64,000 bases of DNA from NCBI GenBank assembly GCA_964016885.1, contig CAXHJY010000531.1:1-64000 (forward strand), written 5' to 3'. Of this stretch, positions 29,869 through 56,092 are shown in pieces. The number at the start of each line of letters is the position of its first letter. Position 1 is the first letter of the stretch. This DNA comes from Eledone cirrhosa (lineage: Eukaryota). The position numbers were made by a program, and so were the translations under genes. The notes below the pieces were generated by a model. That model made no database searches. It saw nothing but the letters and a program-made list of their open reading frames with translations, and had not been told where the DNA came from.

Positions 29869-30865
29869 ATATATATATATATATATATATATATATATAT
29901 ACATATATATATAAATTTTAGTACAGCATCAACGAAGCTTTTGGTAGCAGCCAAGCTAACGAATGCAGTTTCGGTGTGCAGCTAAGCACTCAATGGAGAA
30001 TATTACCACAGAGTTATAACATTACGTTTAGACAGCTTTGCAAATCAAATACAGCGACCGATAGACGGGCTGCAGTGACCATAGCAACGAAAAAAACTGA
30101 ACTCAGGAAACATTTTTGACTGACCTGGACCATCGCGTAGACATTACATGCAGCACATAATGTATACCATACAATATACATCACATACAACATACAACAT
30201 CTCCGCTAGGTTTCTGTAAATCCGAAATCGACAAAATCCACTTGCAGGGGTCTGTAAGTTAATGGCTTTTGACGACAGAACAAAGGAATTTACTTCGTCA
30301 ACAAGTTTTTCGTACTGTTCCTCACGTGTGTGCGTTCTAGCAATAAACACCGCAGGGGCACATGGTTCTCCCAAAGGGAGGTAACCCCCCGTTTTGGCGG
30401 TCAATTGGAAATTTGGAACAAAGGAATAAAATTCCCTTACACAAACCTAATTAAGCACCCAACTAGAAGTTATCAAACAAACATAAACAATTAATCAATC
30501 AATAGAATTGTCTAATGTCTAATTAAATTAATCAATTAATCGTTAATTCTAGGAGTTAATATATATATATATATATATACATATATACATACAGAAAAGA
30601 GGTAAAGAAGACTATATAAATGTGTATATGAATTTAGACTTTGTATGTAAACATATCATATATACATTATATATAGATGTATATAGATATATAAAATGTA
30701 TATAATGACATAGAACAATGTAGGAAAATAAAAAAACGTTAAAACAACTGAATAATTTGCAAGAAAGTTTTTTGGTTTATTTAGAAGAAATAAAACGTTT
30801 CTAAGAGGTAGGAATGTTAAGAGTCATTGGGAAGTCAAGTCTAGATGTCCATTGCAGCAGTTTCT

Positions 30866-30882
30866 TTAGATATTTAAGGCAA
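30866..30882 (-). CDS. Gene A terminal coding exon (VALNI*)
   Basis: tttctctatttcag|TT GCC TTA AAT ATC TAA. Downstream are AATAAA and a 15-mer (TTCTTGCAAATTATT) shared with the gene B 3' end. Confidence 0.75.
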
Positions 30883-33800
30883 CTGAAATAGAGAAAATAG
30901 CTTTTATAATACATACAAACCACTCTGCACACATGCACACATACACATATATGTATGAAATAGATTTGTTCATATCTTTACAACATGGCAGTGATGTTTC
31001 GGTAAAGTATGTGTTCGGTAAGCTTCATCAGGTACAAAATACTGAAGATCCAGCCAAGTTATCTATCTCTCTATCTGTCTATCCACCCATGTATCTATTT
31101 ATTTATCTATCTGTCCATTTATCTATCTCTAACTATCTGTTTATGTATATATCTATCTCTTTATCGATCTTTCTCTACACATACATACATACACGTATAT
31201 ATATGTATATGTTTGTATAAGGAAAGATCTAACTCATCTAACCCATGCTAGCATGGAAAAATGGACGTGAAGCAGTGATGATGATGATGATGAGGGTGGG
31301 CTGAAAAGTTCACAGGATGACTACGAAGGAATGATGCTAGAGCTGTGGAACCTTGTATGCATGAATTTCAACTCTACTTAATTAATAACTGCATTGAGGC
31401 AAACTGACATGTGACTGTTCAAAGAAGACTTCAAAAGTAACTAGTAGCGACTTCTCTTGGAAATGGACATCGTTGTGTTATCAAGAACGTGCAGAAAAAG
31501 GGTTTAGCCTCCAAAGACATTCATGCTGATATGGTTGCTACATTAAGGGATGGTGATTCAGCTTTATCAACAGTGCAAAAGTGGGCAGCTGAATTTTGGG
31601 GGGTAAGTCTTGAATATGAACCAATGTCTGGACGTCCAACAACTTCCACGACCAAGGAAAACATTGATTGTGTTCAGCACATGGTGACGGATGATAAGTG
31701 GTTGATTATAAATCAAATAGCCAATGCTATTAGCATATTCAGTGAAAGAGTTGAGAATATTCTGCACAAAGGTTCCTGCTCAGTGGGTGCCATATCTTCT
31801 AACACCTCATCAAAAGTGCACCAGGCTAATCACATCACAGGGAAAATCTAACATTGTTTGAAGCAGATCCAGCTGGTTTCCTTAAATGTTTCCTAACCCA
31901 GGATGAGTGCTGAGTTCATTACTTTGTGCCTGAAACAGGAGACAATCCATGCAGTGGAAACACCACTCCTCCTCTGCTCCTAAGAAGGCCAAGGTCATTT
32001 CATCTGCAAGGAAGATGATGGCCTCAGTTTTTTGGGGATGCAAAAAACCTTGTATTTATTGACTATTTTCAAAAGGGCCACACCATCAATGGAGAGTACT
32101 GTGTTAACTTGCTGAGGAAGTTACAAAAGGCTCTTAAAGACCAAATGCCCAGTAAAACTGATGAAAGGAGTCTTGTTTCGTTAGGACAATGCACTAGCAC
32201 ACAAGTCCTTGGTTTCAATGGCTGCTGTGTGTGGCTGTGGGTTTGAACTGATCACCCCACTATTCACCTAATTTGTCCCCATCTGACTATTGTTCCCCTA
32301 CATGAAAAAAACACTTGGCTGAGAACCAGTATCACATTGATGATGTCATATCTGCTGTTGATGACTTTTTTGACCAACAGGATGAAACCTCCTTCACCAA
32401 TGAGATCCAAGCATTCAACACCTATGAAAGAAGAGTATGGATTGCAGTGGGGGGGGGGGGGGGGGGACTATGCTGTAAAATAAACCTCATTTAGTCACAT
32501 TCCAGGAGACTATCTTGGTCAACCTTAGAATTTTTCAGCTAACCCTCATATATGTATCATCATCATCATCATCATCACCGTTTTACGTGCGTTCTTCCAC
32601 GCTAGCATGGGTTAGACGGGTTGTCCTGTTGTGGGCAGTGTCCGGTTGGCTGACCTTGTCTTCCTCATACGGGAACTGATTCTGGCTTGATTTCTACAGC
32701 TGGATGCCCTTCCTAACACCAATCTCGTTTACAGTGAGTGCTGGGTGCTTTTTTTCCATGGCCTACATGACCACTTTACAGTGTGGGCTGGGTGCTTTTT
32801 TGCTGTGGCACCTACACGATTACTTTGCAGTGGGATGGGATGGGGTATATTGTCTATATGCTTCAGCTTCGGCTCGTGGGAAGTCAGGTCTTCTGTATAT
32901 ATATATGTATATATATATGCTACACACTCACATTTAGAAAATTACATATATATATACACACACACATAGCTAACTTTGAAATCCTCCAAATTGTGATAGT
33001 ACTTTAGTACAATAGAATATTAAATAATTGTTTCTACTTTTGGCACAAGGCCAGCAATTACACAGTGCATTACTGGTACTTTATTTTATTGATCCTGTAA
33101 GGATGAAAGGCAAAGTTAACCTCGGCGGGATTTGAATATTAAATAATATAAAGAAGAATACTTACCACAGAATTTTTTGACTTGTTCTGGTACATCTTCC
33201 AAGTTAAGACAAGTTGTACTTTGAAGACAGTCTATCTGTTTTTGTACTTCACTGAAAGGATCAAAAATATAAATTTTAAATTTGGGACATAACATGCTGT
33301 GACACATTCTCTGACCCCCAACTTAGTTGGCCAAAAACCCCAGTACCGTGGCTAACAATACAGAGGACAGGAAGACAAGCAAATAGCAGGGGTTGTTCGG
33401 CTGCATTGCACCAGTTGCCGTCGAGACCTCAGGCATCTTCGGACTCTGGATAGCTGACTTCCTCTCTAAAATTGGATCAATAGCAGCCCCATAAGGTGGG
33501 GTGGCTGTAACAGCATGTGTCACTTGCCTTTGTCCATGGAAATATCATTGTCATTTTTTTCGCTCTGATCTAGGTGTAGAGTCTGTTACCCTCTCCCCTT
33601 GCCCCTTTCTTTCTTCCTTTGCCTAGTAGTTCTTGCTCTTCCCCTCATTTATGGCATTTATAGTTCTTTCGAATGCTGCTTTCTTTTTCTGTAAGTTTCA
33701 CCAAATTTTAAATTTTATCTTAAGTTGTGAGCTTTTTATTCCCACTGTAATGATAACAACTAGTAGTGTATATAAAAGTTGAACATACTTTTAGAGAACC

Positions 33801-55200: not shown

Positions 55201-55506
55201 GTTGGTGAAATTTATTTATAGATAATGTATCCTACATTAAAAACAATTCGTATCATAGTTGGAGTATGTTTGATCATATGTCTACTACTACTACTGCTAC
55301 CCCCCCCACACACACACACCACTACTACTACCACCACCTCCACCACCACCGCCACCACCACCACCACCAACACCACTATCACTACAACTAGTAGTAGTAG
55401 TAGTAGTAATAGCAGTAGTAACAGCAACTATGAACATACATATTACATGTTATTGAAGGTTCACAATTAATTTTCGATTTCCTTTCCTTTTGTTCAGGAA
55501 TTGTAA
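46209..55506 (+). CDS. Gene B: unrecognised secreted cysteine-rich protein, 130 aa; join(46209..46248,47766..47853,49617..49699,52981..53071,53570..53651,55498..55506)
   Basis: Six GT-AG exons (40+88+83+91+82+9 = 393 nt) splice in frame to [130 protein letters not shown]. The signal peptide ends in A-Y-A, TATA and Inr lie upstream, and AATAAA occurs at 55616 and 55661. Confidence 0.88.
46475..47382 (-). mobile_element. Degenerate mariner transposon in gene B intron 1 (same family as 31291-32548)
   Basis: ORF 46391..46927 (MASVFWD...FHQDN...[16 protein letters not shown]), [13 protein letters not shown], and one TIR at about 47362-47382. Confidence 0.9.
47766..47853 (+). CDS. Gene B exon 2 ([29 protein letters not shown])
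   Basis: ttttcag|GT...TGCGT|gtaatt, 88 nt. Confidence 0.86.
48870..49057 (+). mobile_element. Full-length tRNA-derived SINE, representative of many copies in the window
   Basis: A/B boxes and the conserved core gcctttcatccttacggggtcgataaaataaagtaccag, which resembles the Deu/Nin SINE domain (from memory). Other copies include 14635-14818, 50685-50870, 51505-51685 and 52485-52670 on -. Confidence 0.82.
49617..49699 (+). CDS. Gene B exon 3 ([28 protein letters not shown])
   Basis: ttttacag|T...TGTG|gtaagt, 83 nt; visible inside ORF 49549..49740. Confidence 0.88.
50372..51505. repeat. (AATAT/AATGT)n pentanucleotide microsatellite interrupted by SINEs
   Basis: Seen directly in the sequence. 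Confidence 0.93.
51800..52470 (+). mobile_element. RTE LINE 3' fragment with (GAT)n tail
   Basis: ORF 51876..52103 ([15 protein letters not shown]...). Confidence 0.88.
52981..53071 (+). CDS. Gene B exon 4 ([30 protein letters not shown])
   Basis: tttttcag|GT...CTTAA|gtaagt, 91 nt. Confidence 0.88.
53100..53130 (-). mobile_element. Helitron-like 3' terminus (hairpin plus CTAG|T)
   Basis: Minus strand cccgagcaacgccggg-ccattctg-CTAGt; related ends at about 48548 and 49855. Confidence 0.5.
53570..53651 (+). CDS. Gene B exon 5 ([28 protein letters not shown])
   Basis: tttctag|T...TTG|gtcagt, 82 nt. Confidence 0.85.
55498..55506 (+). CDS. Gene B terminal coding exon (EL*)
   Basis: Strong pyrimidine tract, then ttcag|GAA TTG TAA. 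Poly(A) signals and a 3' UTR motif shared with gene A follow. Confidence 0.72.
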   Translation, partial: EL

Positions 55507-56092
55507 ACTAACCAAAAAGTCTCTCAGGAAAAAAGAAACATGAACTAACGACACACATCATTACATCCTTCCAGCTTTTCTCAGTTTTTTGGTTTTCTTC
55601 ATGAAACGTTTCTCCAATAAAATTCTTGCAAATTATTTTCTTTGTTTCTGTCATTTCTTGAATAAATTTTCAACAATAATACGATATAATTTATTTATGT
55701 AATATATAACAGTAGTAAAAAAAACAACAGAAAAAAGAGTGGTTAGAAGACCTGTACACTCAATTAGACTCTACAACAAAAGAGGCTGTAGTTTCCTCTA
55801 ATAATGTTTTAGACAAACCAGCACATACATGGCATTGATGTAGAATCTACATAAAATGCTGGAAAACGGGACAAATAACGTATCCTGGTGTCTTTGAAAA
55901 TGCCAGTAATAGTAACGAAATTTCCAAACAGCCATATATTTTATGTATTAGAAAATGCTAGAAAAAGCAGCCAACTCTAACGGTAACCATACACTCCTCA
56001 TGCTAAATATTTCTTTAAATGCATATCTCATCTCAATAATCGTAATCTACACATTTTAATATGTATCTCTAGAAAATTTCATTAACACATAT

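Follow-up and report, generated by a model that had tools for sequence, protein, structure and literature searches.

What kind of product is encoded by two small, head-to-head genes on the 75.5-kb contig G000:C558 (CAXHJY010000531.1) of the 3.0-Gb Eledone cirrhosa genome? The first 64 kb of this contig, taken in full, are the window analyzed here. A first-pass annotation of the window had described a pair of six-exon genes, termed gene A and gene B below, for secreted cysteine-rich proteins. We found the pair to belong to a family with further members on chromosome C23. The genes are paired, have promoter elements in common and keep an odd cysteine, which would suit the two subunits of a single covalent heterodimer that is secreted. 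We tentatively propose, from sequence features, that A and B are co-regulated subunits of a disulfide-linked A-B heterodimer, likely serving as a reproductive or social recognition signal.

Gene models, modules and promoters

Both genes could be rebuilt as first described, with six coding exons, no internal stop codon and GT-AG splice sites at all ten introns. Gene A (minus strand, 41471 to 30866) encodes 134 aa and gene B (plus strand, 46209 to 55506) encodes 130 aa, and their start codons, at 41471 and 46209, lie 4,738 bp apart. Exon 1 is a hydrophobic, 40-nt, phase-1 exon in both genes, and the intron phases run 1,2,1,2 as previously noted, followed by 1 (gene A) or 0 (gene B). From the small residues at positions -3 and -1 we infer signal-peptide cleavage after residue 17, and the mature proteins have masses of 12.8 kDa (A) and 12.3 kDa (B) and isoelectric points (pI) of 7.6 and 8.1, respectively. 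Each has 11 cysteines, six of which (C19, C27, C76, C84, C109, and C115) share the same residue numbers. Mature identity between A and B is 17%, and 24 of 124 columns are identical in another alignment. The latter has a z-score of 4.9 when compared with full shuffles and of 2.4 when the cysteines are kept in place. There are three dibasic sites in A and none in B, and none is conserved in both.

Exons 2 and 3 together encode one cysteine repeat (repeat 1) and exons 4 and 5 a second (repeat 2), following the pattern C-x7-C-x14/17-C-x8-C-x5-C-x10/12-C. The features of the locus are as follows.

41909..42788, no strand: intergenic islands, a candidate shared enhancer, 81-90% identical to the C23 modules
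41608..41622, minus strand: 15-bp motif AAGGTRACATATGTY with E-box CATATG, upstream of gene A (motif scan)
41555..41562, minus strand: gene A TATA box, retained in the C23 copies
41432..41471, minus strand: gene A coding exon 1, a 40-nt phase-1 exon for the signal peptide; matches the C23 A copies at 39 of 40 nt
39613..39709, minus strand: gene A exon 2, first half of repeat 1 (C19, C27, C45); an exon of the same length on C23, and a predicted helix-loop-helix start
35796..35872, minus strand: gene A exon 3, second half of repeat 1 (C54, C60, C71); rebuilt model and C23 exon scans
35122..35209, minus strand: gene A exon 4, first half of repeat 2 (C76, C84; third cysteine absent); rebuilt model and repeat comparison
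33166..33251, minus strand: gene A exon 5, second half of repeat 2 (C109, C115, C129), with a non-synonymous variant at 33201; model and DNA-run contigs
30866..30882, minus strand: gene A exon 6, coding part and stop; last exon and 3' untranslated region (UTR) 78% identical to five places on C23
30776..30781, minus strand: gene A polyadenylation signal AATAAA (rebuilt model)
46012..46026, minus strand: motif AAGGTRACATATGTY again, upstream of gene B but in the opposite orientation to that gene (motif scan)
46119..46126, plus strand: gene B TATA box (rebuilt model)
46209..46248, plus strand: gene B coding exon 1, a 40-nt phase-1 exon for the signal peptide; matches the C23 copies at 37-39 of 40 nt
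47766..47853, plus strand: gene B exon 2, first half of repeat 1 (C19, C27, C42); acceptor duplicated 34 nt upstream
49617..49699, plus strand: gene B exon 3, second half of repeat 1 (C51, C57, C70); rebuilt model and exon search
52981..53071, plus strand: gene B exon 4, first half of repeat 2 (C76, C84), with a non-synonymous variant at 53041; model and DNA-run contigs
53570..53651, plus strand: gene B exon 5, second half of repeat 2 (C109, C115, C127), with four variant bases changing three residues; model and DNA-run contigs
55498..55506, plus strand: gene B exon 6, coding part and stop; this exon with the 3' UTR matches three places on C23 at 82-88% identity
55616..55621, plus strand: gene B polyadenylation signal AATAAA, with a second one at 55661 (rebuilt model)

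The duplicated acceptor of gene B exon 2 spans 47698-47765, and use of the upstream copy (start 47732) would lead to a frameshift and an early stop. Decayed transposase-like remnants, which we take to be of the mariner type, lie at about 46390-47330 (gene B intron 1) and about 31400-32450 (gene A intron 5).

The C23 copies were reached by a search with exon 2 of gene A, followed by exon scans over 800 kb around them. Two further head-to-head B/A modules (starts 10434545/10441041 and 10486829/10493327) form a near-identical 52-kb tandem duplication, giving three complete modules in all with starts 4.7, 6.5, and 6.5 kb apart. C23 also carries a single B-type gene (10536791), fragments from the 3' part of A in three places, and, at 10001514, an orphan promoter of B type that is followed by exon 1 but has its TATA region deleted. 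The family comprises at least seven complete genes with at least five distinct sequences, and genome-wide searches with four exons, two promoters, and one signal pattern, whose results are lower bounds, detected no member outside C23 and the contig of the window. Since the C23 array starts at an assembly gap, the gene count may be higher. A weak match on C1 (L006), without splice sites, was ruled out as a family member. The segment C23:10370416-10532749, which begins at the gap, consists of tandem units 97-99% identical to one another with a 52-kb period and contains whole and partial modules; the copy number may have expanded recently, or the pattern may in part come from the assembly.

The gene models are beyond chance because the five further complete C23 genes share the splice phases of exons 1-4 and have near-equal exon lengths, the same as those of A and B within a few codons. 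A and B are very probably real, expressed genes. The first-pass annotation was right to call them paralogs, and what it missed is that they belong to a multigene family in which A/B pairs are duplicated together, and that they form one such module.

The promoters are also shared. The regions 41018-41755, 41909-42788, and 45638-46300 are 81-91% identical between modules. Consistent with the suggestion that both genes are TATA-driven, TATAAATA is located 90-91 bp upstream of each ATG, and a TATA box is present upstream of all six module genes. The motif AAGGTRACATATGTY occurs upstream of the same six genes and in the orphan promoter, and with one mismatch at the single B gene; all seven exact matches in 875 kb are at family promoters. 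As the motif is inverted relative to gene B, it is not simply a case of positional homology. Genome-wide, there are 233 matches compared to 29 for the reversed control pattern, and among the matches listed (100 of 233) most fall within one tandem array on C1. This array (G000:C1:434894408 onward) has a unit of about 46 bp containing AAGGTRACATATGTY in at least 97 copies. The CATATG core is presumably the E-box preferred by the secretory-cell regulators MIST1/DIMM. The promoter is consistent with a secretory cell, and the A and B proteins are probably secreted gland products.

Cysteine scaffold, divergence and variants

The earlier reading of a disulfide scaffold in fast-diverging proteins is supported, as all 11 mature cysteines are kept in 5/5 distinct paralogues (130-136 aa) with just 13 columns invariant. 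It had overlooked the two repeats per protein and the odd cysteine conserved in every paralogue. Repeat 2 lacks the third cysteine in 5/5 distinct paralogues, and for 4 of 10 sequences the cross-profile score between the repeats is higher than in any of about 1,000 shuffles. Models of 31-residue fragments, which are of low confidence (predicted template modelling score 0.26-0.30), contain a long helix in exon 2 (predicted local distance difference test, pLDDT, 71) and a helix-loop-helix in exon 5 (pLDDT 61), and hydrophobic periodicity peaks at 100 degrees. From this arrangement we infer that each repeat may form three helices bonded C1-C5, C2-C4, and C3-C6. Without C3 in repeat 2, the last cysteine (A C129, B C127) would be left free, and with 11 conserved cysteines one is always unpaired. 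The conservation of this odd cysteine in all paralogues points to a dimer, and for a covalent A-B heterodimer in particular we consider the chances to be about even. All chains end 3-7 residues past the last cysteine and therefore have no membrane or glycosylphosphatidylinositol (GPI) tail.

Identity among four paralogue pairs is 82-96% in the upstream 200 bp, 92-98% in the signal exon, 66-75% in the 50-nt intron flanks, and 58-64% in the mature exons, where divergence is roughly equal at all three codon positions. In codon site models, approximately 60-70% of sites fall in the neutral class, and under M0 both the B trio (p = 0.01) and the A pair (p = 0.016) have an omega significantly lower than 1. 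The mature exons are constrained by purifying selection, but they are very free. Silent or decaying copies under relaxed selection would be in keeping with the large neutral class, with the partial copies and the TATA-less orphan exon 1 on C23, and with the frameshift and stop that the duplicated acceptor of gene B would yield if used. This is nevertheless highly improbable, as five paralogues of 17-41% identity retain every cysteine, splice site, frame, and stop, and omega is below 1 in both groups.

The window B gene has conflicting affinities: its non-coding parts are nearer to the module B gene at C23:10434545 (96% upstream), whereas in the mature exons the nearer relative is the single B gene at C23:10536791 (41% vs. 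30% aa identity; 14/14 vs. 4/10 four-fold sites), which suggests recombination or conversion.

Three sequencing runs from one sample cover the introns continuously without splice joints; they therefore look like DNA reads and carry no information about expression. Contigs from these runs differ from the window at six exon bases (five codons) in 424 bp, all non-synonymous, and at about four positions in 2,802 non-coding bp (Fisher p = 0.0007 by base and 0.003-0.009 by codon); the tally covers contigs of single-copy depth among those listed, with repeat-depth rows left out. Single-copy contig depth in the same runs is about 7-15 over gene A (33113-36000) and about 14-26 over gene B (52900-55700), a difference that could mean that A is hemizygous, that B has an additional copy, or that the library is biased.

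The remainder of the window includes a cystathionine gamma-lyase-like gene (CTH; 8521-25090, plus strand), five exons of which are matched by PF01053. It is the only copy found in the genome and lies on this unplaced contig. Its last exon has 84% identity with Argonauta hians and 98% with Octopus vulgaris, which supports the octopod origin that had been considered probable and indicates an animal close to Octopus. With CTH in single copy and no long collinear identity, the contig was ruled out as a mere haplotig of C23.

Relatives and the weighing of roles

Homology searches were performed at the single-exon level. A word search of protein collections with exon 2 of gene A found no candidate, though O. 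vulgaris proteins were included, and a signal-exon profile matched 0 of 4,177 candidates at E ≤ 10. An exon profile against 1.84 billion representatives gave three matches, judged to be artefacts (two tandem repeats and one 3,605-aa laminin-G repeat protein). None of eight mature exons matched Pfam, and no uteroglobin match appeared in PDB or among 10 exon-3/5-type peptides; two Pfam matches among these peptides were judged to be chance. PDB sequences gave nothing or a best E of 0.17, no similarity to Pfam or PDB toxins was seen, and the ESM Atlas returned three short bacterial clusters under 0.9, none usable. Of 40 simulated orthologues, 29-40 were recovered when identity was 80%, 14-33 when it was 70%, and 1-3 when it was 50%, and in leave-one-out tests on true paralogues 0/7 reached E ≤ 0.001 with either exon profile. 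Such searches are reliable at about 80% identity or more and weak below about 70%, and the blanks therefore exclude close annotated relatives alone. The family appears to be without a close annotated relative in the collections searched and may have remote kin, so that the first-pass label of an unrecognized family stands only weakly. The absence of an annotated orthologue would be expected if the proteins diverge fast or come from a gland that is seldom sampled. The literature searched, which included a minority of the subscription papers on coleoid venom, contained no description of the A/B family; supplementary proteomic tables could hold these proteins.

With searches that miss even true paralogues, the genes could be a fast-evolving offshoot of an old helical cysteine-repeat family (DUF19-like, RGM-N, or neuritin-like), with products that work as internal ligands or carriers, and orphan through weak single-exon searches. 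DUF19 has 12 cysteines in two repeats, and the two repeats seen here, each of roughly six cysteines and together approximately 115 residues long, resemble it; an omega below 1 shows constraint. However, the DUF19 model (PF01579) had no genome match at E ≤ 10, with exons scored singly and no control giving a match either. The RGM_N domain (PF06535) of this genome, in an exon of the repulsive guidance molecule gene (L093; G000:C5:106850511-106850714, minus strand), differs in cysteine spacing (4, 21, 9, 7, 21 vs. 7, 14-17, 8, 5, 10-12) and sits in one exon; hhalign probability against the family is ≤0.3%, and the repeat profile scores ≤5.3 bits at that locus. For neuritin (NRN1), which has a GPI anchor, single exons gave no Pfam match, and the A and B chains have no hydrophobic tail. 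Internal ligands rarely drop to 30-40% identity between copies with 90% identical promoters, and we regard this origin as quite unlikely.

In the proposed heterodimer, A and B would be expressed together in one gland cell, secreted as predicted helical proteins, and joined through the unpaired cysteine of each subunit, and the dimer may present a variable surface to a fast-changing partner such as a chemoreceptor, a gamete protein, or a mate protein. Annotated octopus genomes cover the venom glands well, but the searches turned up no orthologue that is closely related and annotated. Genes that arose in the octopod ancestor are reported to have their highest expression in male reproductive tissue (excerpts of PMC7656900), and octopus seminal and spermathecal fluid contain many proteins of unknown function (excerpts of PMC12691039). 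On these grounds a reproductive or social signal is slightly, and only weakly, favored over venom; a reproductive or pheromonal role in preference to venom or skin defence may be given somewhat less than an even chance.

Alternatively, A and B may be a disulfide-rich family of the posterior salivary gland, diversified against prey targets and possibly two-chain. This appears doubtful, although venom and skin or immune defence are both near rivals of the recognition reading. Toxin families such as conotoxins and snake toxins usually combine a signal and promoter that are conserved with a mature part that varies on a fixed cysteine frame, as here, and the variants are concentrated in exons. Coleoid salivary glands are also described as expressing ‘possibly lineage-specific peptides’ (excerpts of PMC4280546). 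Opposed to these points are the missing toxin similarity and orthologue noted above, the lack of a dibasic site common to both genes, and the dominance of serine proteases in gland-specific expression in O. bimaculoides and C. minor (excerpts of PMC7656900). A polymorphic secreted family of the skin, mucus, egg coat, or immune defence that recognizes or damages microbes or parasites is unlikely, although non-synonymous polymorphism and copy-number turnover (the 52-kb tandem duplication and three partial A copies) are typical of immune recognition loci, and the proteins are small, predicted to be helical, disulfide-stabilized, and slightly basic. Saposin-like proteins have a C-x2-C in the first helix and six cysteines per domain, but the C-x2-C signature is absent in 5/5 paralogues; the proteins are not strongly cationic and have no family match, and a role in defence does not need paired A/B modules.

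Several points also weigh against the recognition heterodimer. Nothing links the genes to reproduction over venom or skin. The odd cysteine can equally give homodimers or stay free, the single B gene on C23 lacks an A partner and its TATA box is degenerate, and AAGGTRACATATGTY was chosen by eye after promoter comparison. Omega is 0.58-0.89 by NG86 and 0.48-0.62 under M0, and the site models give no significant class of positively selected codons (M2a against M1a, p = 0.25-0.73). Synonymous divergence (dS) of the mature exons is high (0.56-0.94), and therefore old duplicates combined with promoter homogenization by gene conversion would explain much of the contrast between promoters and mature exons. 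The variant excess comes from one sample, from contigs that drop variants, and from five codons, three of them on one contig, with p = 0.05 if those three count as one event (three events); the variants may derive from an unassembled copy.

Comparison with known paired-gene and toxin systems

The layout resembles that of the mouse androgen-binding protein (ABP) genes Abpa/Abpbg (Scgb1b/Scgb2b; cat Fel d 1), in which divergent subunit genes occur as 5'-5' pairs among modules, singletons, and fragments. According to excerpts of PMC2291036 and PMC8525912, the mouse pairs are 5-20 kb apart, duplicate as modules, encode a disulfide-bridged heterodimer, and mediate sexual selection; the octopus family likewise has modules duplicated as pairs, three of them complete. 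Both systems involve small secreted helical proteins (predicted here) that change rapidly, with a disulfide heterodimer known in ABP and inferred here. Secretoglobins are confined to amniotes, are not found in molluscs, and are single four-helix monomers of nearly 100 aa (excerpts of PMC11884772), with a proximal and a distal half-cystine, whereas the octopus genes have six exons and encode 130-136 aa with 11 cysteines, two predicted three-helix repeats, and no sequence match. The likeness is therefore one of analogy and not homology: A and B are not secretoglobins, and the family works like ABP at most. A stronger version, in which octopuses independently evolved an ABP/Fel d 1-like paired-gene recognition system on an undescribed double three-helix scaffold, with module and allele variants of the disulfide-linked heterodimer as a chemical signature of the individual or species in mating, is distinctly doubtful.

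The family also has the toxin-type pattern of conotoxins and snake toxins: the signal exon and non-coding DNA are conserved, the mature exons vary on a fixed cysteine frame, and copies arise by tandem duplication. It differs in lacking a propeptide or conserved processing site, in its larger two-repeat helical protein, and in its obligate-looking A/B pairing. DUF19 (with two units), RGM_N, and neuritin are secreted and helical, as A and B are predicted to be, with about six cysteines per unit, but A and B differ in cysteine spacing and have no GPI tail.

Few proteins are known by which octopods recognize mates, gametes, or individuals, and many lineage-specific venom components are unassigned. 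The locus defines an apparently unannotated family with exact predicted junctions. If the products belong to venom, they would represent a new two-chain disulfide scaffold; if the heterodimer is real, the family would have converged with the ABP modules of mammals in how its genes are laid out, paired, and evolve. As a kind of paired-gene system it is known from mammals, while its scaffold and lineage are apparently new as far as the sequence searches reach.

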